From Candidatus Heimdallarchaeum aukensis (GTDB lineage Archaea > Asgardarchaeota > Heimdallarchaeia > Heimdallarchaeales > Heimdallarchaeaceae), in assembly GCA_021513695.1 (NCBI GenBank), contig CP084166.1, forward strand, positions 2,432,001-2,496,000: a stretch of 64,000 bases of DNA, written 5' to 3'. The notes under the pieces were generated by a model. That model saw only the letters and a program-made list of their open reading frames with translations, did not search any database and had not been told where the DNA came from. Shown here piece by piece: positions 37,018 through 64,000 of the stretch. Both the position numbers and the translations under genes were made by a program. Each line of letters starts with the position of its first letter. The first letter of the stretch is position 1.

Positions 37018-40000
37018 GTGTGGAGAATGCAAACACATATAATGAGAAAATTTGTTTTTGTTTTTAACTTTATAATTATAATCATTTTTAGCAGTTTAAA
37101 TCCTTCAGTAAATGCTGTGAAAAATGATTATTATACAAAATCTTCTATTGAGGGAGAAACAGTTTCTATTACTTTCTCCGTTACAACACCATATGAAGTG
37201 TCTTCTTTAGAAATACAAATTTTATATCTAATAGACCCCTATTATTATTATAGTTATCAACTGTCAAAAAATAGTCAAGATCCAAACGTTTTCGAAATAA
37301 GTTTAGAGCTGACTGAAGGAAAACTTTTACGATATCGTTATAGTTTAGGTGGAAATCAATGGGAATATCTTTCAGATAAAAATCCTTCATTCAGAACAAT
37401 AGTTATCTCTAAAGGCAATACAAACATCGAAGATAATATTGTGGGTTTTTGTCCTTCTTTTGACCCTTCTACTATTACACGATTAAACGTGACTGGTAGA
37501 GTAGTGGAGCAGGAAACTGATAAACCCATAGAAGATGGTTTTGTTGCTATTGGTGGTGTCATAACTCCTTTAAGAGCTAATGGTTCTTTCTATGCACAGA
37601 ATGTTTTTTCTGGTTATCAACACATACTCGTTTTTTCTTATTCTCATCTGAATTTACAATCAATACAAAATTTGTCTCCAGATACAGACGATGATCCTTT
37701 AGAAATTGATTTAGGGACTTTTAGTCTTGAAAAAACTAGACTTATAAGAGTCACTTTTATTGTAAAAACACCTGAGAATACACAAGACAAACAAGTAAAA
37801 ATAGTAGGCGATCTTCCTCAACTAGGTTATATTTATCCTTATATGGTCTCAACCAGAAATATTCTATTACAACATGTCAAAGATAATTGGTTTATTCAAA
37901 CATTAGAAATTCCAGAACATGTTCCGTTTAACTATTTTTACACTTTAGGTTCATATAACACATATTATGAGGTTGATTCACCCAATCCAAATCCTTTTGT
38001 CCGTTCAATTTATCCAGAAAACAATTCAGTAATAGTTGATGAAGTAGGTGCATGGAAAAATAATGGTTATGTTCATATGAAATTTACAGTAAATGTGCCG
38101 GAAAATACTCCTCAAGAATTTGGAGTCTCGCTCGTAACTAGTAATTCTTTCCTCAAAATGAATAAATTTAGTTCAACAGAATGGTACACAGAACTTGACT
38201 ATCCCGAAGGTTGGGAGTTTAATTATTATTATGCTGTAGGACAAGTAGATCATTCAATTTGGGAGAGTGAATATAATAATTCCAATCCTAGAACTAAGAC
38301 TGCCTCAGAAGGAGAATTTGTGGATACAGTTTCTAAATGGAATTACATTAAAACTCCTCAAACATCTACAGAAAGCAGTGTAAATGTAAGTTTAGTTTTT
38401 ACTGTTCCTTCTTATACTCCAGACGTCTCACTTTATCTAGCAGGAGAACTGTTTGATAATTGGGTAAATCCGCAAGGACAATTATTGCAGAAACTTGACG
38501 CCCACTCTTATCGTACATTCATAGTTTTAAACAAAGATATTGAAACAAGTTTTACTGTAACTAGAGGAACATGGGCTAGTTCTGCAGAAAAAAACTTTAC
38601 TCTTATCCCCAAATTTGAGGGAGAAGAATTTTACTTTTCAGTTGATTCGTGGATAGATCTCTCTTCTCCTTGGAATAGAACTTCATTAATTACTGGAGTT
38701 ATGCCTATAGATTATTGGTCTTCTGATATGCGCACATCTTTAGATCCAGCATTTAAACACTTTGCAGAACTAGGTGGAAAATGGATAGAATATAGCCCTA
38801 TCTGGAATTATGATAGATTGAAACCCTTTCCTTATTTATCCTCTACGACAGGAGTATATACCCCTGATGAAGATCTGGCTTTTATAGTAGAAACAGCAAA
38901 AAAGTATGGTTTGAGAGTAGGTATATCTCTTCAGATAAATACAGAACAAACAGCAGATTCTTCTCAATGGGGAGATTTTACAGCTGAAAAAATTGATGTT
39001 TTGCTTGAAGGATTAAGAACATTCTATTTCCATTATGCAGAACTATCACAGAAATTAGGGATAGAATTCATGACCTTTGCACGTCTAAGTGGAGACTGGA
39101 TAAATGATGCTTATGATACATTTATGATTAACTTAATTCCAGAAATTAGAGAAATATATTCTGGAATGCTCACAACTCACCAAGGTTGGACAGATGATTT
39201 TCAATACTATGGATTACTTGATTTCATAGGTTTTTATTTCTGGGAATCAGTGTTAGCTGGCACTCCTGACCCTACAGTAGACGAATTAACTACTGCATTT
39301 GAAGAAGTTATTGATACACACTATAGGCCCTTTTATGTGAAGTATCAGAAACCAATTATCTTCACTCAAGTGGCTTATGCAGCAATGGAGGAAGCCAACG
39401 GCCAACCCACTATTCCGAGTATTTACGAGGGAACAACTGTTGAATATAGACCTGATATTCAAGCTAGAATCTACGAAGCACTATACAGAGCAATAGCTAA
39501 CAGAACATGGATTGAAGGACTATTTAGTTTTGGCTGGAAATATTGGCCTTCTCATTTTCCAGAATATTCAATCAGCTACACTCCTGCAGAAACAGTTGTT
39601 GCTAAATGGTCAAATATGGTTAACTACGGAAATGGTGTGATTGTTAATAATGAAAACAAAGTAAAAGTAGAACAAGAAGACTTTATTCTTCACCTTGAAG
39701 AATCAGGTTTTTACACTGATATAAGATTAAGAGATTCAGAAGGAAACAACTGGTCTTCTTGGAATATATATCAAACTACAATTGATCTCTCTACTATTCT
39801 CCCGGAGATAAGTACTGAAAAACAGTATGTAATCTGGTTACAAGCAAAAAATTCGACTTTTACAAGTAATCCTACAGCTGTTAAGGTTATAGTAGATTCT
39901 ACAGCTCCTAAAATAAGCACTCAACCAACAAGTTACAATTTTAATCTTAGTAGTTTTAACAGTCTTGGAAAAATAGTGGAAGAAACTAGTTTAAACTTGT

Positions 40001-40884
40001 TAACTTTTGTATTTGATGACACTAGCTCAATTAATGTTGAAGCTCAGGTTACAGGGGCAGAGAATTATACAATAAATACAACAGGAAACGTTTTCACGCT
40101 ACCTATAATATTGTTTACTGAAGGAGATTGGAAAATAAAGTTGAATGTCTATGATGAGTATAATCACTTAACAACTACGACTTTTGAGTTTAGCATTTTT
40201 TCTATAGAATCGACCACTCCTCCGAAATTTACTTCCATTCCCGATGATCTTATTTTTGAAGAAGGTTCGACTGGGCACACTTTAACTTGGATAGTTACAG
40301 ACACCAATCCTTCAACTTATACTATTTATTCAAACGGCACTGAAGTTACCAGCGGTTCTTGGTTATCTGATCAAGCTATTAGTTTCTCTGTAGATGATTT
40401 AACTATAGGTTCTTACAATATTACTATTTTAGTTAAAGATTCGACAGAATTGTCTGCAACTGACACTACATGGGTGGTCGTAAATAAGCCAGAACCACCG
40501 AAATTTACCTCTACTCCTGATGATCTTACTTTTGAAGAGGGTTCGACTGGGCACACTTTAACTTGGATAGTTACAGATACTAATCCTTCAACTTATACTA
40601 TTTATTCAAACGGCACTGAAGTTACCAGCGGTTCTTGGTTATCTGATCAAGTTATTAGTTTTTCTGTAGAAGATTTAGGCGTTGGTTCCTATAATATTAC
40701 TATTTTAGTTACGGATACAACTGGATTATCTACGACTGACACTGTAAATGTGACTGTATTGTCGTCAGACAACAATAGTAGTGGTGATACAACTAAAAAC
40801 CCATTTTCGCTATTTTCACTAATTATATCTTTGCTTGGAATAAGTTTTGTTGCTTTATGGGTGATAAAAAGGAAAAAAAGCTAA
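37018..40884 (+). CDS. large cell-surface protein: signal peptide, beta-rich domains, clan GH-A-like TIM-barrel glycoside-hydrolase domain, two near-identical 92-aa tandem repeats, Ser-rich linker and C-terminal TM anchor with basic tail
   Basis: The GH-A-like region (GLRVGISLQ, GIEFMTFARLSGDW, IIFTQVAYAA, WIEGLFSFGWKYW) is homologous to 42497..43666. The C-terminus is PFSLFSLIISLLGISFVALWVIKRKKS. Confidence 0.6.
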   Translation: MWRMQTHIMRKFVFVFNFIIIIIFSSLNPSVNAVKNDYYTKSSIEGETVSITFSVTTPYEVSSLEIQILYLIDPYYYYSYQLSKNSQDPNVFEISLELTEGKLLRYRYSLGGNQWEYLSDKNPSFRTIVISKGNTNIEDNIVGFCPSFDPSTITRLNVTGRVVEQETDKPIEDGFVAIGGVITPLRANGSFYAQNVFSGYQHILVFSYSHLNLQSIQNLSPDTDDDPLEIDLGTFSLEKTRLIRVTFIVKTPENTQDKQVKIVGDLPQLGYIYPYMVSTRNILLQHVKDNWFIQTLEIPEHVPFNYFYTLGSYNTYYEVDSPNPNPFVRSIYPENNSVIVDEVGAWKNNGYVHMKFTVNVPENTPQEFGVSLVTSNSFLKMNKFSSTEWYTELDYPEGWEFNYYYAVGQVDHSIWESEYNNSNPRTKTASEGEFVDTVSKWNYIKTPQTSTESSVNVSLVFTVPSYTPDVSLYLAGELFDNWVNPQGQLLQKLDAHSYRTFIVLNKDIETSFTVTRGTWASSAEKNFTLIPKFEGEEFYFSVDSWIDLSSPWNRTSLITGVMPIDYWSSDMRTSLDPAFKHFAELGGKWIEYSPIWNYDRLKPFPYLSSTTGVYTPDEDLAFIVETAKKYGLRVGISLQINTEQTADSSQWGDFTAEKIDVLLEGLRTFYFHYAELSQKLGIEFMTFARLSGDWINDAYDTFMINLIPEIREIYSGMLTTHQGWTDDFQYYGLLDFIGFYFWESVLAGTPDPTVDELTTAFEEVIDTHYRPFYVKYQKPIIFTQVAYAAMEEANGQPTIPSIYEGTTVEYRPDIQARIYEALYRAIANRTWIEGLFSFGWKYWPSHFPEYSISYTPAETVVAKWSNMVNYGNGVIVNNENKVKVEQEDFILHLEESGFYTDIRLRDSEGNNWSSWNIYQTTIDLSTILPEISTEKQYVIWLQAKNSTFTSNPTAVKVIVDSTAPKISTQPTSYNFNLSSFNSLGKIVEETSLNLLTFVFDDTSSINVEAQVTGAENYTINTTGNVFTLPIILFTEGDWKIKLNVYDEYNHLTTTTFEFSIFSIESTTPPKFTSIPDDLIFEEGSTGHTLTWIVTDTNPSTYTIYSNGTEVTSGSWLSDQAISFSVDDLTIGSYNITILVKDSTELSATDTTWVVVNKPEPPKFTSTPDDLTFEEGSTGHTLTWIVTDTNPSTYTIYSNGTEVTSGSWLSDQVISFSVEDLGVGSYNITILVTDTTGLSTTDTVNVTVLSSDNNSSGDTTKNPFSLFSLIISLLGISFVALWVIKRKKS
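40222..40773 (+). repeat. 276-bp direct tandem duplication (2 copies, about 93% nt identity) inside the CDS 37018..40884
   Basis: Copy 1 starts ccgaaatttacttccattcccgatgatctt at about 40222. Copy 2 starts ccgaaatttacctctactcctgatgatctt at about 40498. The encoded repeats are PKFTS.PDDL.FEEGSTGHTLTWIVTDTNPSTYTIYSNGTEVTSGSWLSDQ.ISFSV.DL..GSYNITILV.D. Confidence 0.85.
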
Positions 40885-51697: not shown

Positions 51698-52723
51698 TTT
51701 TATATAAAGCATGTCCAAAAATTAATTTTTATTAATGTGGGGGTTTATGTCGGAATTATGAGTTTCTTTCAGATCATAGACCCCCACAAACTAAGAGAAT
51801 TCATAATTATGAATGAACCTTTCCTTAAGAAATTGGTGGATGAGAAAACGAGAGAAAGCAAGAAAGGAAGAAAAAAATAGCAGAAAGATGGGTAATATTA
51901 GCAATAACAATCATTGCAAGAATAGAAGGGATAGCCTGGAGGAAGTTAGAAGAAAAGTTGCCTCTATGCGATTTTTTGATAGAAGAGGGGTGGATGAGGA
52001 AGATTCCTTCTAAATCTACTTTTCATGCAGTGTGGGAAGCAACAGAAATTAAAATTTTAGAGCAGTGGATAATAGATTTAGGGGGAGAAATAGTGAGAAA
52101 AAAAGGGTTGAAAGCTATGGCAGTGGACAGTTCAGGGTTTAAAATTCGTTAAGCTTCTGTTTGGCGTTTTCTCAAGTGGTCAAGAGGGACACTAAAGAAA
52201 TCCTCCCAACTAAACTTTTCTGGAAGATACACCTTATAGTTGGTTTACCCTCCAGAGCTGTAGTCTCTCTAGCTCATTCAGCTAGTAACACTCACGATAG
52301 TAAAGTCTTCGGTTTACTATGGCAGAAACTTCCTTCTGCACTCTTAAGACCGTTCTTGAGATTCTATGATGACTGCGCCTACTGGACAGAAAATATCGTC
52401 GGTCTTCTTAGCCAACATTCTTTTTTCCCTGTTATTCCCCCAAAAAGTAATGCTCGTTATCCCTCTCCTCCTCCCCTCGGACCAATAGTTCAAGCTCATC
52501 GTCTCTACCCTGGTCTCTATCGTCGTAATCATCACCCCGAGTATCGTAGTAGTATTGAACATGTCTTTGGTCTTCTCAAACTCTCTCTTCCGCCCATCCT
52601 TGATCGTTTACCCTCTACTATTCTTTCTACGCTTTACAGTTCTCTTCTCTGTTACAACTACCTTTTACTCCTTCGGACCGTTTAGTAGGTGAAAAAGAAT
52701 TTTTGGACATGCTTTATATAAAA
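51698..52723. mobile_element. insertion sequence, IS4/IS5 superfamily (IS5-like), 1026 bp, with perfect 26-bp terminal inverted repeats; the transposase is degraded
   Basis: The left end 51698-51723 is ttttatataaagcatgtccaaaaatt. The right end 52698-52723 is its exact reverse complement. The interior is markedly GC-richer than the flanks, and it carries the transposase C-terminal motif YRSSIEHVFGLLK (IS5 Y-R-IE-F-LK). Confidence 0.75.
51813..52685 (+). pseudogene. IS5-family DDE transposase split over three ORFs in frames 0/+1/0 (51813-52013, 51958-52152, 52161-52685)
   Basis: ORF2 has the DDE D1 region MAVDSSGFKI. ORF3 has the C-terminal YRSSIEHVFGLLK. Two opposite frame shifts argue for decay rather than programmed frameshifting. 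Confidence 0.65.
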
Positions 52724-56355: not shown

Positions 56356-56901
56356 TTGATGAAAAAAGCAGTATATTTAACTAAGTTTGTATTTATAGTT
56401 TTAATTCTATCTTATTCAGCAATAATCACCTTTTCAGAAAATACAAATGAAAATGATTATTTCTTTTCTATAAACTTACTATCTCCTAATCCTTCTTGCT
56501 GTCCTAATGAATATGCCTACCAAATGGAAGAAGAATTACCAAAAATTGGTATTAATATTAGTCACCATGAATCAACCGGTTGGGGTAATATTATGCCCAG
56601 AACATGGGGTTATCCCGTTGGTGAAGAAGGTAAGTTTGATTATATACCCACCTATGAAGAAGGAGGATACGATATCCTCTTTGTAGGTTGGTGTTGGAAA
56701 CTAGATTGGGATCCAACAGGACTGTTTGATTCACCAAGTATAGTGCCGAACGGAGATAATGTATACCAATATAACAATCCTGAATTTGATACAAAGCTTG
56801 TTGAGTATACGACTGAACTAAATGATGAAGAACGTATTGAAAAAGCAAAAGAATTACAAGCTATTATTTATGAAGACCTGCCAGCTATAACCATGACTTA
56901 A
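56356..56901 (+). CDS. short SBP family-5-like ORF (signal peptide + C-terminal lobe), paralog of 51113..51676, truncated right after the conserved EDLPAI region
   Basis: The signal peptide MMKKAVYLTKFVFIVLILSYSAIITFS is followed by IGINIS...YDILFVGW..DWDPTGLFDS...NVYQYNNPEFDTKLVEYTTELNDEERIEKAKELQAIIYEDLPAI. Confidence 0.45.
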   Translation: MMKKAVYLTKFVFIVLILSYSAIITFSENTNENDYFFSINLLSPNPSCCPNEYAYQMEEELPKIGINISHHESTGWGNIMPRTWGYPVGEEGKFDYIPTYEEGGYDILFVGWCWKLDWDPTGLFDSPSIVPNGDNVYQYNNPEFDTKLVEYTTELNDEERIEKAKELQAIIYEDLPAITMT

Positions 56902-57417
56902 TGCACTTAAGGCGAAGCCATAAGGTTTTTTGAATTTAAATTCTACTGTATCATTATCTATCGCCTTAATTGAATCGTTATTTTCGAACAAGCTTGTTAG
57001 TTCTTTGTAAAATGGTGTGTTTAGCGCTTTTGTCATAAACAGTTCATACGTATAATCTACATCATAAGCTGTTACTTTATCCCCATTAGAGAAATAGGCG
57101 TTGGGATTAATATCTACTCTAATTACTTTCTTATCTTCGCTAATGGTGTAATTTTTAGCTATAACTGGTTCCATCAGATGAGTTTCCTGAGAACGTTCAA
57201 AAAGTCCATAATAGACACAATTCATCCATAGTTTATCATAATATGATTCTTGTATAAAAATGCTGTATTCTGTTAACTCTGCGGGGATAGTCCAACTAAT
57301 ATTATCTCCACCTATTTTTTCCCAATTTTCTGAACGATGAGCACTGTTAATTAATAAAGTAGGATCAATACCTTTGACACTCTTATTGCACAGATAAATT
57401 TCTTCGAAGTAAAGCAT
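56854..57417 (-). pseudogene. N-terminal lobe fragment of an ABC family-5 solute-binding protein, encoded on the opposite strand and lacking a signal peptide
   Basis: GLFERSQETHLMEPVIAKNYTISEDKKVIRVDINPNAYFSNGDKVTAYDVDYTYE and SIKAIDNDTVEFKFKKPYGFALSALS align with the DppA/OppA N-terminal domain. Confidence 0.55.
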
Positions 57418-57420
57418 GGT

Positions 57421-58128
57421 ATAATAAACAAAAAACTAGTAAGTCAATATATAGAAGAAAATGGATACAAACTTACAGTCCTAGATCAAGCTCTGGTAAC
57501 AAGCACAGGACCATACATGCTAAATGTTTCTGAGTTTAATACAAGTAAAAGTATAGTAACACTCAGACCAAATCCATATTGGTCTATTACAGAAAAAAAA
57601 CCAGTAAACAAACTAATATTCCAGTACATAAGTGGTAAAGATACAGCAATTAGTGCTTTAGCAAATGGTACAATAGATATAGTTGATTCAAGTTATTGCA
57701 CAAAAGAAACAGATTTTGAAAATGTAGAAGTGAATATCCTAATAGCTAAAAGTATGAATACAGAAGAAATGGCTATAAATATGAAACACCCAATAATAGG
57801 AACAGGAGAACTTACACCTCTAGGAACGGCAGAAGCAGCAAAAAAAATACGCCAAGCGATAAGTCATGCAGTACCAAGAGAAACACTAGTAGAAAAAATA
57901 TTTTATGGAACAGCTATCCCAGGAGTGACTCCAATGCCAGAAGGATGTATAGGTTTTGATTCGTCATTAGAACCCTTTACTTATGACATATATCTAGCTA
58001 TTCAACTAATTGAGGAAGCAGGATTTACAAGAAATATTACAACAGACACAACAGGAAATGCTACATTAATAGTAGTAACATTGATTTCTATTTGTTATGC
58101 TGTAATCTTAAAAAGGAAAAAGAAATAA
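57421..58128 (+). pseudogene. middle-domain fragment of an ABC family-5 solute-binding protein ending in a C-terminal TM anchor; no in-frame start before 57517
   Basis: The open frame from about 57358 reads ...KKLVSQYIEENGYKLTVLDQALVTSTGPYMLNVSEFNTSKSIVTLRPNPYW...IRQAISHAVPRETLVEKIFYGTAIPG...PFTYDIYLAIQLIEEAGFT. It ends ATLIVVTLISICYAVILKRKKK. Confidence 0.5.
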
Positions 58129-59462: not shown

Positions 59463-60110
59463 TTAATTTGCAATTGTAAAGTATTTAGCAGCGAATCTGC
59501 CTGCATTTGTTAATTTAATAATATTATTTCTTCCTTCTTTTTTATTTTCAATGAGATTCTCTTTTTCAAGTTTATTTATATAATAACTTACAAGTTGAGG
59601 TCTTATATTCAGAACATCACTGATCTCTGAATTAGCTGAACAAATTTTTCCTCCTCTTTCAAGTATGAGTGTAAGTATTTTTTTGGCATTATCTTTTATG
59701 TCATCTAATTGGACTTTTGGAATGGGAAGCTTAATTATTCTATCACTTAATGGATCATTATTTTTTGGTTCTTTAATATAATAAATCTCTGAACCAGAAA
59801 AAAATCCTGCTATTACACCAGCTGATGACATGATTTTTGTACCTCCTGTAATGTTTATGTGGATTCTATTACCAATGTTCTTCTTGATAATACTAAGAAT
59901 TTTAACTACAACATCTTCTAAATCAAATTTATCAACTTCAACTAATGTACAATTAATAAATAGTTTTTCAGTTAGTGCTCTAATTGAATTAGCCTCTGTT
60001 TTTGATCCTTCATTGTAAAGAAGAAATATATCATCAATTTGATATGCATTTATTCCTTCAATTATTGGTTTTGGTGTCAATCCAACTGTCATAATATGTA
60101 CATTTCGCAT
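59463..60110 (-). CDS. Csa3-like CARF-domain + winged-HTH transcriptional regulator
   Basis: It has an N-terminal Rossmann-like CARF core (MTVGLTPKPII...IFLLYNEGS...RIHINITGGTKIMSSAGVIAG) and a C-terminal wHTH (ISDVLNIRPQLVSYYINKLEKENLIENKKEGRNNIIKLTNAG). It is divergent from the viperin gene. Confidence 0.55.
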   Translation of the reverse strand: MRNVHIMTVGLTPKPIIEGINAYQIDDIFLLYNEGSKTEANSIRALTEKLFINCTLVEVDKFDLEDVVVKILSIIKKNIGNRIHINITGGTKIMSSAGVIAGFFSGSEIYYIKEPKNNDPLSDRIIKLPIPKVQLDDIKDNAKKILTLILERGGKICSANSEISDVLNIRPQLVSYYINKLEKENLIENKKEGRNNIIKLTNAGRFAAKYFTIAN

Positions 60111-60216
60111 GATTTAGATAATGAAAAAATATTTAAAAATATATGGTTGTATAATACAAAATTTTTTTTAATTATAAAAATAAAATTTTTAATATTGGGT
60201 TATTATAACATTATCT

Positions 60217-61095
60217 ATGAATTCCGGATTAATCGATAGGGAAACAATAAGAATGCAATCTCGTAAGTTAGTAAGTGTTAACTGGCATCTGTGGCCAAGA
60301 TGCATGAATAATTGTTCTTTTTGTTTTGGAAGATTTAATGAGATTAAAACGACCTTAAATAGAGAAAATGCGCTAAGAATTTTAAGAATCCTAGTAGATA
60401 GTGGAACTGAAAAAATTTCTTTTACAGGAGGAGAACCATTATTATGCCCTCATTTGGGAGAGTTGATAAAAGAAAGTCATAATTTAGGCTTAACAACAAT
60501 GTTGATAACAAGTGGTACAATTCTAAATACAAAATTTATTGAAGAACATCATAGGTATTTAGATTGGATCGCCTTGAGTGTTGATAGTTCAAATGAGCAT
60601 ATCCAAAAACAATTAGGAAGAGGAAACGGAAATCATGTTCACAAGATTAAAAAATTATCAAAAGATATACATTCCTATAATATCAATTTAAAAATTAATA
60701 CAGTAGTAACAAAACTTAACTGGAATGAGGACATGACTGAATTTATAGAAGAAATTGCCCCTGTTAGATGGAAAGTTTTTCAAGTCCTAAAGATTGTGGG
60801 ACAAAATGATGGTACAATAGATCAGTTGCTTATTTCTGAAGAAGAATTCAATGTTTTCGTTAAAACCCACAATCATCTGAAACCAGTAGTAGAATCTAAT
60901 AAAGATATGAAAGGCTCTTATATAATGTTAGATGCATTAGGTAGATTCTTTCAAAATTCTAATGGTTACTTACAATATAGTCAATCTATATTGGAAATTG
61001 ATCCAATAAAGGCTATTATACAGGTGGGTTGGGATTATAACAAATTTATAAAAAGAGGTGGATTATACAATTGGAATATAAAAGGGGGAGGTTAA
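60217..61095 (+). CDS. prokaryotic viperin (pVip; radical SAM ddh-nucleotide synthase homolog of RSAD2)
   Basis: It has VNWHLWPRCMNNCSFCFG (CxxxCxxC), KISFTGGEPLL, LDWIALSVDSSNE...GRGNGNHV, INLKINTVVTKLNWNEDMTEFIEEIAPVRWKVFQVL, DMKGSYIMLDALGRFF and KRGGLYNWN. This is a near motif-for-motif match to eukaryotic viperin. Confidence 0.85.
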   Translation: MNSGLIDRETIRMQSRKLVSVNWHLWPRCMNNCSFCFGRFNEIKTTLNRENALRILRILVDSGTEKISFTGGEPLLCPHLGELIKESHNLGLTTMLITSGTILNTKFIEEHHRYLDWIALSVDSSNEHIQKQLGRGNGNHVHKIKKLSKDIHSYNINLKINTVVTKLNWNEDMTEFIEEIAPVRWKVFQVLKIVGQNDGTIDQLLISEEEFNVFVKTHNHLKPVVESNKDMKGSYIMLDALGRFFQNSNGYLQYSQSILEIDPIKAIIQVGWDYNKFIKRGGLYNWNIKGGG

Positions 61096-61101
61096 ATATC
61101 T

Positions 61102-63888
61102 ATGTCAGTTCTTTATTATGAAAACCTGGAGGAAAAATTACCCGAAAAAGTAGTAGAATCAATTATGTGGTCTACTTTGCACGGTATTAAACCTTATTTA
61201 GAGTTTATTGATAGAATTGTCCGTTCTGCTATTGAAGAAAGAATTAGTATAGAAATAGAAAAGTATGATATAACTGAATTAATTTTAGAAGAGACAGAAA
61301 TTAACAAAAATATAGATAAAATTAATGAAGAAGTTATTGCGGATTATAAAGTATTACTGAAAGAAAAGAGATTAAGTAGGCAATTAAGAAAAGTTATTAA
61401 ATTAGTTGAAAAAGGTGTTGGTGTCTTATATCGCTTTGTTGAACCAAATAATGATATGGAATTGGAAAATTATGACCTAATCAAAGAACGTTTTTTGGAT
61501 GCTGATAAAGTTTTTCCACACAGAAAACTTGAATATCAGCATACTATTCGTGTTTTAGATACTTATCCTCCTCTTGATTTACTTGTGTTAAAAAAGAAGG
61601 ATATTAAAAAAAGCAAGCAGAAAATGAGAATATACCAAAGAGCAAATCTTTATCAGTATGGTGTAATAAAAGAATCGCTGGAACAACTATTAAACAGACC
61701 TTTAAAGCACAATAGAAATTTAATAAGATTATTTGAAAATGTCAAACATGTCCGTTTTGGTGATGTAATTCCTCACAAAATAAAAGAAGATGAGTGGTTA
61801 TTTCTTACGGATAAAAATCGTGTAGGAAGCCAAGATCAAAGAAAATTTGTTCAAATTGCCTTGGGGACGCCTGATCTGGCAATATTAGAAGGGCCTCCAG
61901 GTTCAGGAAAAACTACAACTATTTGTGAATTAATTTATCAAGGATTAAGACGTGGTTTAAAAATTCTATTGGTTGCATCAACTCATGTGGCTGTAGATAA
62001 TGTTTTAGAAAAATTAATGGATGAAAATTCTCCTATCTATGATGAAATAAAAAAAGTAGTCTTACCTGTTCGAATTGGAAAAACAGATAGAATATCTGAT
62101 CTAGCTACCATGTATCAAGTAGACACCTACTGGGAATCTGAAAAGGAGAAATTAAAAGATAAATTGCGTAAATTAAAAAATAAAACAGAATCTCAAAAAA
62201 TGCTGTTAGATCTATTAGATGATAAGGAAAAAGGCACATCTGATTATATGAAAAGAGTTTTCATAAAAGCTGCTAATTTAGTATGTGGAACAACAATAGG
62301 TATTCTTCGACATCCTGAAATAGAAAAAAGAAAAAAAGATAGAAAAATTACATCTACGAAACCTTATGACCTTCTTATTTTAGATGAAGCTAGTAAAACA
62401 ACCTTTCAAGAGTTTATTGTACCTGCTTTGTTAGCTAAGAAATATATTATAGTTGGGGATATTAGACAATTACCTCCTTATGTTGATGAGGATGGTATAA
62501 TTAGTAATATCCCCTCGATAACAGATTTAGAAAGCAAATTTGCTACATTGATTCATAATCTTAAAGAAGCTCAGAAGCGCAATTTATTCCCTGTTAAATG
62601 TATATTACAAATAAGTAATGACCTAAAAGATAATGATTTAGAAATAATTGAAAAGTTTACGATTAATAATGTACCATTTTATTATCTAAAAAAAGAGAAG
62701 AAAGTAGACTTATACAAACTTATGGGTTCCTCTTTGTTAATAGGAACGAAAGAAAATTTACAAAAACAAGAATCTCTGTTACCTTTAGGAATAAATTGTG
62801 TGTGCGAAGGAAACTCCTCTGCATTAGTTCCATTAAATGAATCTAAGACATTTGTAGATTTTACAATTTGGAAGAGAAAACATAATGCGATTTCATCTTT
62901 GAGGCAACCAATAAACTTACGATTTTACAATGATGAATCTTTAACTGAAGCAATAGGCTGGCGCTTAATAAGGGATTTTGAATTAAGATATGTTGATAAT
63001 GATAGATATTGGAAACAAATAGAAACATTTATCCCAGAGTACTGGGATGAAAAAAGAAAGAGAGATTTTATTAACAGACTATTTCAAATAAAGAGGTTAG
63101 CTTTTCCATCGATAATTGAATTATTGCAAAAAGGTTTCCAAAGAAGCAAAAAACAAAAAGAATTAGATATCGGTTTGATTATAACTGATGGATTACCTAA
63201 AAAAATATTACAAGAACGCCATGTTATATTAAAATATCAACAAAGGATGCATCCTGAGATATCTGCATTTCCTAGAAACAATTTTTATAATAATGAAGCA
63301 CTCCGTGATCTGCCTGAAATTGAGAAAAACAGAGTTTTTGAATATCCAAATTATAAAAATAGAACAATCTGGGTAGATGTTCGGTTAAACAAAGAAGAAC
63401 AAAAAGAAATGAAAAAAAATATGAATAGAAATAAAAAAGAGGCTAAAGTAATTATTGATGAGCTAAAAGATTTACTTGATTGGATGTCTAAAAATAGGAA
63501 ACGTGATGGAAAACCATGGATTATAGCTATTCTTCCGTTTTATAAAGGTCAAGAAAAACTAATTAGAAAAAAACTTCAATCTTATTTTAAAAGTAAACGA
63601 GTAAGAACATTTTATTGTATAGAAAAAAATGCAATAGTTGAGCTTTGTGCTGTTGATAGGTTCCAAGGGCATGAAGCTGATATTATTTTTCTATCTTTTG
63701 TAAGGAATCGTAGCACTGGTATTGGTTTTTTGGATACTCCAAATAGACTTAATGTTGCGCTAACAAGAGCTAAATATCAGTTGGTGATAGTAGGAGACAA
63801 ACAATACTTCGAAAAATTTCAAAAGAGATCAGAAATCTTGCAAAAACTTGCAGAAGAAACACCTCTAAAAGCAAAGTATAGGATCTGA
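61102..63888 (+). CDS. Upf1/MOV10-like superfamily-1 helicase (AAA_11/AAA_12, COG1112-type) with ~260-aa uncharacterised N-terminal domain
   Basis: It has Walker A GPPGSGKTTT, motif II ILDEASK, motif III IIVGDIRQLPP, motif IV-like QRMHPEISAFPRNNFY, motif V VDRFQGHEADIIFLSFVRN and motif VI LNVALTRAKYQLVIVGD. A strong SD (GGGGGAGGT) lies within the viperin stop region 6 nt upstream. Confidence 0.8.
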   Translation: MSVLYYENLEEKLPEKVVESIMWSTLHGIKPYLEFIDRIVRSAIEERISIEIEKYDITELILEETEINKNIDKINEEVIADYKVLLKEKRLSRQLRKVIKLVEKGVGVLYRFVEPNNDMELENYDLIKERFLDADKVFPHRKLEYQHTIRVLDTYPPLDLLVLKKKDIKKSKQKMRIYQRANLYQYGVIKESLEQLLNRPLKHNRNLIRLFENVKHVRFGDVIPHKIKEDEWLFLTDKNRVGSQDQRKFVQIALGTPDLAILEGPPGSGKTTTICELIYQGLRRGLKILLVASTHVAVDNVLEKLMDENSPIYDEIKKVVLPVRIGKTDRISDLATMYQVDTYWESEKEKLKDKLRKLKNKTESQKMLLDLLDDKEKGTSDYMKRVFIKAANLVCGTTIGILRHPEIEKRKKDRKITSTKPYDLLILDEASKTTFQEFIVPALLAKKYIIVGDIRQLPPYVDEDGIISNIPSITDLESKFATLIHNLKEAQKRNLFPVKCILQISNDLKDNDLEIIEKFTINNVPFYYLKKEKKVDLYKLMGSSLLIGTKENLQKQESLLPLGINCVCEGNSSALVPLNESKTFVDFTIWKRKHNAISSLRQPINLRFYNDESLTEAIGWRLIRDFELRYVDNDRYWKQIETFIPEYWDEKRKRDFINRLFQIKRLAFPSIIELLQKGFQRSKKQKELDIGLIITDGLPKKILQERHVILKYQQRMHPEISAFPRNNFYNNEALRDLPEIEKNRVFEYPNYKNRTIWVDVRLNKEEQKEMKKNMNRNKKEAKVIIDELKDLLDWMSKNRKRDGKPWIIAILPFYKGQEKLIRKKLQSYFKSKRVRTFYCIEKNAIVELCAVDRFQGHEADIIFLSFVRNRSTGIGFLDTPNRLNVALTRAKYQLVIVGDKQYFEKFQKRSEILQKLAEETPLKAKYRI

Positions 63889-63892
63889 AATT

Positions 63893-64000
63893 ATGAAAAT
63901 ACTATTAAGAAAAAAAATATCTATAGAATCGTATTGTGTGCAAATGAGCGTTTTTGTTAGCGAAGAACGACCAGAAATAATCCCACTATTAAAAGGAGTG
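63893..64000 (+). CDS. hypothetical protein, 3' partial at the window edge
   Basis: An ATG at 63893 opens MKILLRKKISIESYCVQMSVFVSEERPEIIPLLKG..., which runs off the window. Confidence 0.25.
   Translation, partial: MKILLRKKISIESYCVQMSVFVSEERPEIIPLLKGV

Follow-up and report, generated by a model that had tools for sequence, protein, structure and literature searches.

Genes and organisation of the viperin–helicase locus

In this study, we analysed a 64-kb stretch of DNA from Candidatus Heimdallarchaeum aukensis (hereafter the window, 64,000 nucleotides (nt) long) and concentrated on a locus at its end, which comprises a regulator with a CARF domain and, at its C-terminus, a winged helix-turn-helix (wHTH), a prokaryotic viperin and a Upf1-like helicase of superfamily 1B (SF1B). 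A preliminary description of the window, made from its letters alone, had presented these genes as a viperin–helicase effector pair facing a divergent regulator of the Csa3 type. The three open reading frames (ORFs) of 215, 292 and 928 amino acids (aa) were confirmed with the coordinates and lengths it had given, as was the 106-nt spacing between the divergent genes (Table 1), and the three proteins are annotated in GenBank for this organism on a 3.08-Mb contig. The operonic coupling of viperin and helicase also held. The viperin gene ends with TAA at 61093–61095, the helicase ATG at 61102 lies 6 nt past this stop, and a GGAGG motif (61087–61091) is found within the last sense codons of viperin, directly abutting its stop.

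The idea of a two-gene effector pair had to be given up. The operon is interrupted by the window end at 64000, and therefore just its first two genes had been visible in the preliminary description. The Logan contig L001 (17.7 kb) matches the window exactly where the two overlap and reaches 6.3 kb beyond it. There the helicase is followed on the same strand by X (366 aa) and at least four more genes, which encode, in this order, a PLD nuclease (510 aa), CARF_m1 (179 aa), a PIN-like protein (366 aa) and a 273-aa protein. The helicase thus opens a widespread, Mokosh-like helicase–X–PLD trio, which is followed past the window edge by a CARF_m1/PIN pair. From viperin onward, the intergenic gaps in the window and L001 measure 6, 4, −4, 46 and 10 nt, and the accessions of the nine proteins of the region run consecutively.

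Table 1. Features of the viperin–helicase locus. Positions are those of the window unless contig L001 is named.
Feature	Position	Strand	Remarks
CARF + C-terminal wHTH regulator	59463–60110	−	215 aa, GenBank UJG40385.1
Divergent spacer, promoter/operator candidate	60111–60216		106 nt between regulator and viperin genes
AT-rich box 1, GTTGTATAATACAAAAT	~60146–60162		from the eight-region alignment
AT-rich box 2, TTTTTAATTATAAAAAT	~60165–60181		palindromic in relatives as CTTTTATTATAAAAG (L005)
AT-rich box 3, TTTTTAATAT	~60186–60195		22–31 nt ahead of the viperin ATG
Viperin (pVip) = AsgVip01	60217–61095	+	292 aa, UJG40386.1, first gene of the operon
Upf1-like SF1B helicase	61102–63888	+	928 aa, UJG40387.1
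Gene X, first 36 codons	63893–64000	+	366 aa in full (K9W45_11170), cut by the window end
PLD nuclease, CARF_m1, PIN-like and 273-aa genes	contig L001 12305–16442	+	beyond the window

Prokaryotic viperins (pVip) were reportedly described by Bernheim and colleagues in 2021. The viperin identity claimed for the first gene of the operon was borne out by motifs, by family profiles and by matches to PDB entries, and both the profiles and the PDB matches placed it well above MoaA. The protein scored 286 bits against NCBIfam NF038283 (viperin_w_prok, cut-off 180), compared with 66 bits against the NCBIfam MoaA family (cut-off 284), and it matched the PADLOC pVip models at 1e-82 to 1e-85 (best 1.5e-85) and Pfam Radical_SAM at 1.3e-20. 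Sequence comparison with the PDB returned viperins at about 1e-54 and MoaA at 1e-6. The translation holds CMNNCSFC (the CxxxCxxC pattern), FTGGEP (the GGEP motif that binds S-adenosylmethionine), APVRWKVFQ and KRGGLYNW. As a new candidate, the viperin did not stand, since it is 100% identical to AsgVip01 of assembly GCA_021513695 (Shomar et al., bioRxiv 10.1101/2023.09.13.557418, Supplementary Tables 3 and 4), a known producer of 3'-deoxy-3',4'-didehydro (ddh) nucleotides that blocks T7 without a partner. Shomar et al. showed that AsgVip01 yields multiple ddh-nucleotides, classed it as having a promiscuous Asn-type pocket, and found that it protects Escherichia coli against T7 when expressed alone. 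The window protein is thus AsgVip01 itself, with the radical-SAM CxxxCxxC, the C-terminal viperin motifs, the pocket type, the products and the anti-T7 activity. The published account differs in lacking the helicase–X–PLD and CARF context found here, as the authors looked at nucleotide-kinase neighbours only and handled viperin as a single-gene system.

The helicase carries Pfam AAA_11 and AAA_12, and its translation contains GPPGSGKTT, DEAS, QLPP and VALTRAK. Its best PADLOC match was MkoA (PDLC03920) at 5.4e-89, aligned from profile position 460 of 1112 onward only, and its sequence matches in the PDB were headed by UPF1 (1e-31), followed by IGHMBP2, DNA2, Sen1/SETX and ZNFX1. The Upf1-type SF1 helicase named in the preliminary description was upheld by these domains and matches. 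A predicted structure of moderate quality (predicted local distance difference test score (pLDDT) 65.6, predicted template modelling score (pTM) 0.37) gave UPF1 and IGHMBP2 as its top Foldseek matches; it confirmed the Upf1-like core but provided nothing reliable on the N-terminal 240 residues. Assignment of the protein to the PLuB or the IGHMBP2 family was rejected, as both scores were far under the cut-offs. A scan of a genome contig collection with the helicase returned one distant match, from Chryseobacterium.

Gene X had no family in Pfam, NCBIfam or PADLOC and no sequence match in the PDB, with only a weak wHTH at its N-terminus, and a search for homologous proteins recovered X alone. 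The X family is small, with 195 representatives at E ≤ 1e-3 among 1.84 billion. The PLD protein possesses a pair of PLDc_2 domains as well as the HxK motifs LHAKFLLVD and LHAKFILS, and in PADLOC it matched DrmC (3e-27) more strongly than MkoB (2.8e-9). Its identification as DrmC of a DISARM system was rejected, with no other DISARM genes found and a score of 70.9 bits against a cut-off of 133.

The divergent regulator scored above the Pfam cut-offs for HFX_2341_N (64 bits), CARF_Card1 (32 bits) and Csa3_N (30.5 bits), as well as for Cas_APE2256. Its C-terminal wHTH matched DUF6293_C (31.7 bits, cut-off 27) and HTH_24 (24.4 bits, cut-off 21.9), and PADLOC CARF3 aligned across the full length at 3.4e-55. 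When the regulator is aligned with solved CARF proteins, its CARF signature N-I-T-G-G-T-K falls on their ITGGRK and ISGGTK; this signature and a second pocket motif, TVGLTPKP, are kept in 14 orthologues of the regulator. The divergent Csa3-like CARF regulator of the preliminary description is therefore supported by the Pfam CARF and wHTH families and by PADLOC CARF3.

Eight divergent intergenic regions, whose regulators are 39–54% identical to the window protein by tblastn, were aligned, and three AT-rich boxes were common to them. The third box reads TTTTAATAT across the eight regions and lies 22–31 nt before the first plus-strand start. Judged from this alignment, the boxes may correspond to two TATA-type promoters and a candidate operator, with the regulator as the putative binding protein.

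Further along the operon, the 179-aa stand-alone CARF protein matched the CARF_m1 profile at 3e-10. The 366-aa protein that follows it is best described as PIN-like, on the basis of a specific but weak match, DTN included, to a hidden Markov model (HMM) of the PIN-like partners of CARF_m1 (19 bits, 2e-7 in a target set of nine sequences); its UniRef name is PIN-domain protein. The last same-strand gene (L001 15621–16442, +) encodes the 273-aa protein K9W45_11190, which matched nothing in Pfam, NCBIfam or PADLOC and had no detectable relative in the other 93 loci. Convergent with the operon end and about 5.9 kb past the window, a DUF6602/PD-DExK protein (L001 16488–17264, −) showed similarity in PADLOC (1e-23) to nucleases of the CRISPR-associated and NucC types and may serve this island as an additional effector.

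Neither the 64-kb window nor L001 contained a CRISPR array, cas10 or any other cas operon. The absence of a CRISPR array or cas gene from the window, stated earlier, was thus borne out, and the matches there to cas-named PADLOC models (Cas3 at 2.7e-13, Cas3g, and type IV DinG at 8e-13) were generic helicases only. The genome of Ca. H. aukensis holds CRISPR-Cas systems elsewhere (Wu et al., PMC8813620).

Conservation of the gene neighbourhood

The co-occurrence of the three genes expected from the preliminary description was found in related genomes, with both the regulator and the helicase beside viperin. For helicase relatives at 43–60% identity, a CARF-wHTH gene on the minus strand faces genes for a radical-SAM protein, the helicase, a protein of about 370 aa and PLD on the plus strand. 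A Heimdallarchaeota contig that begins at the helicase continues with a 378-aa protein and PLD. We compared the module proteins by tblastn with 85 loci, consisting of 80 metagenome loci, the window contig and the contigs of four relatives, and counted downstream genes in loci with at least 3 kb downstream (n=51) and upstream genes in loci with at least 2.5 kb upstream (n=35). PLD followed the helicase in 50 of 51 loci, X was detectable in 40/51, and an ORF of about 370 aa lay between helicase and PLD nearly always. Viperin was found upstream in 12 of the 35 loci and CARF-wHTH in 11, with both in 10, so that the two occur together in 10 of the 13 loci having either. Viperin and CARF-wHTH are facultative additions to the trio, found in about one third of informative loci. 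Because this adjacency recurs on particular helicase branches, the viperin–CARF–helicase linkage is conserved and not a matter of chance.

The distribution of viperin follows the helicase phylogeny. When 76 helicases were arranged in a neighbour-joining tree, the upper clades had viperin in 21 of their 27 determinable loci, and of about 20 such loci belonging to the other clade none had it. The distance from viperin stop to helicase start was −8 to +16 nt in 13 of the 20 distinct viperin-linked loci. The linkage was kept in two rearranged loci, one with viperin inverted and the regulator co-directional with the helicase (L010), and the other with all genes co-directional (L013).

The slot between regulator and helicase varies in content. 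It may hold viperin, NYN together with viperin (L003, L087), NYN only (L042) or DUF559 (L028), and also viperin with a nucleoside monophosphate kinase (L053, L061, L064) or with a small CARF protein (L083). Pairs of CARF_m1 and PIN recur at varying positions (L005, L007, L033, L058, L075, L085, L091). Downstream of PLD in the locus of the closest relative (L003 15459–15551), we observed a 31-aa remnant of CARF_m1 (48% identical), which suggests that a deletion removed the CARF_m1/PIN pair from this locus.

Loci without viperin also carry CARF proteins. In Methanolobus sp. T82-4, viperin is lacking, and the helicase, a 386-aa protein and PLD are accompanied by a convergent HFX_2341_N/HTH protein. 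In the clade that lacks viperin, PLD is followed by a fourth gene, which matches RtcR_PspF1 (CARF-AAA+-HTH) at 1e-152 to 1e-197. Plasmid 2 of Vibrio rumoiensis (L093, NZ_AP018688.1, 512–7340) bears, in RefSeq terms, a helicase, a hypothetical protein, a PLD-like protein and a sigma-54-interacting regulator; this plasmid-borne four-gene form from a cultured Vibrio has generic RefSeq names only. Every branch of the helicase–X–PLD family that we examined carries some CARF protein, whether Csa3-like, RtcR-like or in the form of a CARF_m1/PIN pair.

In the reverse direction, we took six viperin relatives (48–62% identity) on long contigs in rank order, ignoring the helicase in the choice. Helicase–X–PLD lay directly downstream of viperin in three of the six (L087, L088, L091). 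The other three had a 374-aa unknown protein (L089 8001–10141), SIR2_2 (L090 8001–10033) or an NYN RNase (L092 8001–9826) instead. Six further viperin relatives were found on contigs equal in size to those bearing close helicase relatives. Viperins of the clade to which the window protein belongs seem to combine with varied second effectors (L089, L090, L092).

Proposed antiviral operon and alternative explanations

Considering the above results, we regard it as reasonably probable that in Ca. H. aukensis the genes of the locus form a single antiviral operon, co-regulated and with several layers. As judged from its domains and its position, the CARF-wHTH protein would be a ligand-responsive transcription factor, which binds a nucleotide-derived signal and switches the operon from the shared 106-nt promoter region. 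In a first layer, AsgVip01 turns CTP, UTP and GTP into ddh chain terminators that stall viral polymerases, which has been demonstrated experimentally with this exact protein (Shomar et al., bioRxiv 10.1101/2023.09.13.557418). In a second layer, the Upf1-type 5'–3' helicase, the wHTH-containing X and the PLD protein with two HKD motifs may detect viral RNA or replication intermediates and break them down. The split CARF_m1 sensor and the PIN-like protein might form a third layer, as a ligand-activated back-up RNase. Under the same explanation, helicase–X–PLD would be the ancestral core, and the slot before the helicase would be variable, being stably filled by viperin in one major branch.

Several observations weigh against a single co-regulated operon. 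AsgVip01 protects E. coli alone and therefore requires no partner. Viperin is absent from most helicase–X–PLD loci, and three of the six sampled viperin relatives lack the helicase, which shows that the parts can be separated. The defence role of the helicase–X–PLD subfamily is itself a prediction from homology to Mokosh. On the regulatory side, the CARF regulator scored 55.1 bits against NCBIfam Csa3 TIGR01884, just short of the cut-off of 60.2, and is therefore a relative of Csa3 and not a curated member, and its single-sequence AlphaFold model (pLDDT 44) was discarded. Moreover, neither Cas10, CD-NTase nor another cyclase was present among the window ORFs or the genes of the 17.7-kb L001. 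Of the CARF control and cyclic oligoadenylate sensing proposed earlier, the presence of a Csa3-like CARF protein stands, but the control and the ligand would have to be deduced from this protein, with no synthase in the window or L001.

It could be argued that the locus is only a defence-island neighbourhood, in which viperin, helicase–X–PLD and CARF_m1/PIN are independent and the CARF-wHTH protein regulates itself or one of them. The autonomous action of AsgVip01 in E. coli would be expected in such a case, as would the finding of each module without the others (L089, L090, L092, L094 and the bacterial clade) and the unrelated NYN, DUF559 or kinase genes that the slot before the helicase may hold. 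However, the genes keep a fixed position on the same strand with overlapping or near-overlapping starts and stops in most loci, they are co-inherited along helicase branches at 36–60% identity, and their linkage persists after local rearrangement (L010, L013). For a gene present at most about once per genome, adjacency in 12/35 loci is also far above random placement. We therefore consider simple neighbourhood rather unlikely. An opposite possibility is a mechanistic coupling, in which helicase and PLD clear ddh-terminated RNAs and stalled polymerases, or a ddh-nucleotide is itself the CARF ligand. Upf1-family helicases act on aberrant ribonucleoproteins, and viperin is stably co-inherited with its helicase clade; the two CARF sensors with no cyclase nearby and the frequent co-occurrence of viperin and CARF-wHTH (10/13) would also agree with it. 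CARF-wHTH and CARF_m1/PIN are nevertheless present in viperin-less loci (L028, L033, L042, L057, L094), and the ligand therefore cannot generally be the product of viperin. Such a coupling appears distinctly improbable.

The operon could instead serve a function other than defence, with helicase–X–PLD and CARF acting in RNA or DNA quality control or repair and viperin merely adjacent. UPF1, IGHMBP2, Sen1 and DNA2 are housekeeping helicases, and the bacterial regulator of the family is RtcR-like, RtcR reportedly controlling RNA repair genes (PMC9650030). Against this, the HMM that the helicase matches best is that of MkoA, a defence protein, the neighbouring genes encode methyltransferases and restriction–modification systems, NYN, PIN, SIR2, a NucC-like nuclease and toxin–antitoxin proteins, the distribution is patchy and includes plasmids, and the association is with a proven antiviral enzyme. 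We regard a purely non-antiviral role as highly improbable. A more far-reaching form of the antiviral operon can also be imagined, namely an archaeal composite system in which ddh-terminated transcripts and stalled polymerases are destroyed by helicase–X–PLD, and CARF proteins tune expression and trigger the PIN RNase; it is a speculative extension to which we give little credence. If true, Asgard and other archaea would unite viperin, a Upf1/MOV10-type helicase and a PLD6-like nuclease in one pathway, which would be a prokaryotic forerunner linking nucleotide-analogue immunity to the surveillance of aberrant RNA.

To our knowledge, viperins have so far been handled as stand-alone enzymes, assisted at most by kinases, and we know of no account of the sensing or regulatory logic of Mokosh-type helicase/PLD systems. 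Throughout one branch of the family described here, the helicase–X–PLD operon begins with a hard-wired viperin gene. This opens questions about synergy between chain terminators and degradation, about the induction of Mokosh-like systems by nucleotide signals and about archaeal CARF signalling outside CRISPR loci. The host is among the closest known archaeal relatives of eukaryotes, and in eukaryotes viperin, Upf1/MOV10-like helicases and PLD6-like nucleases all serve in immunity or genome defence. Therefore, the cluster bears on the origin of eukaryotic innate immunity.

Relation to described systems and other features of the window

The closest described relative of the trio is Mokosh type I, which consists of a COG1112 helicase gene with a Ser/Thr kinase domain and a separate PLD gene, and whose defence requires both the ATPase site of the helicase and the PLD site (Millman et al., preprint 2022). 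The present locus likewise has a Upf1-like, COG1112-type helicase and a separate PLD gene with intact HKD motifs. In contrast, the window helicase has no kinase domain, as indicated by the lack of a kinase Pfam match, its length of 928 aa and its alignment to the MkoA profile from position 460 onward. A third gene, X, is placed between helicase and PLD where Mokosh has a two-gene layout, the PLD protein is nearer to the DrmC models than to MkoB, and CARF regulators are attached. A DefenseFinder table covering Asgard archaea contains a Mokosh_TypeI call in which MkoB lies two gene positions from MkoA. This spacing fits the three-gene layout, and such loci have therefore probably been labelled Mokosh already.

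MkoA and MkoB have been likened to MOV10L1 and PLD6 of the PIWI-interacting RNA (piRNA) pathway (Cury et al.), and the pairing of a Upf1-like helicase with a PLD-family nuclease is shared with the present locus. The window helicase counts UPF1 and ZNFX1 among its nearest relatives of known structure. The resemblance to the eukaryotic helicases is at the level of domains only, with 14–16% identity in structural alignments.

The regulator resembles Csa3/CARF3 in its N-terminal CARF domain, C-terminal wHTH, retained signature motifs and divergent position beside its presumed target operon. It differs in having no adjacent cas genes, in falling under the TIGR01884 cut-off and in its best Pfam family, HFX_2341_N/DUF6293. 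Csa3 reportedly binds cyclic tetra-adenylate (cA4) (PMC8844856, PMC8699464). The known cyclic oligoadenylate signalling systems, type III CRISPR or CBASS-like, differ from the present one in that no cyclase or synthase is encoded among the window ORFs or the L001 genes. In its bacterial branch, the helicase–X–PLD family has RtcR_PspF1 in the corresponding regulatory role, with the difference that it has the architecture of a sigma-54 enhancer-binding ATPase and does not occur at the window locus. The 2014 CARF paper (Makarova et al.) described the RtcR-like family only as frequently near restriction–modification systems.

A literature search yielded no paper connecting viperin to Mokosh, a helicase or CARF, in agreement with the earlier remark that no described example of the architecture was known to its author. 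The parts are already known, namely a tested viperin, a Mokosh-like helicase and PLD, and a Csa3-like CARF protein; their conserved assembly in one operon appears to be undescribed. The presence of a CARF protein in every examined branch of the helicase–X–PLD family likewise appears to be an undescribed finding.

Outside the locus, the remaining window consists of housekeeping genes, such as those for glycoside hydrolases, FTHFS and oxidases. No tRNA or Rfam match was obtained in the region of the locus or in the remaining window, and such elements were rejected. Just upstream of the locus (56356–58128), an ABC-type substrate-binding gene of the SBP_bac_5 family is split into three ORFs, the middle piece of which (56854–57417) is on the opposite strand; it looks like an internal inversion or a pseudogene. 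Single proteins of window positions 1–52000 matched PADLOC models for LmuB (1.8e-32), SngC (8.7e-26), PsyrT (3.1e-22) and DpdF (1.4e-20), which probably reflects generic similarity to SMC proteins and DEAD helicases. Three short consecutive plus-strand ORFs of 66, 64 and 174 aa at 51813–52685 (GC content 0.26) appear to be pieces of one decayed gene, perhaps a mobile element. A 276-bp tandem repeat with 1.9 copies and 89% matches (40222–40743) lies within a 1288-aa ORF (37018–40884), and intragenic repeats of such a kind have been reported for Heimdallarchaeum genomes (Wu et al., PMC8813620).

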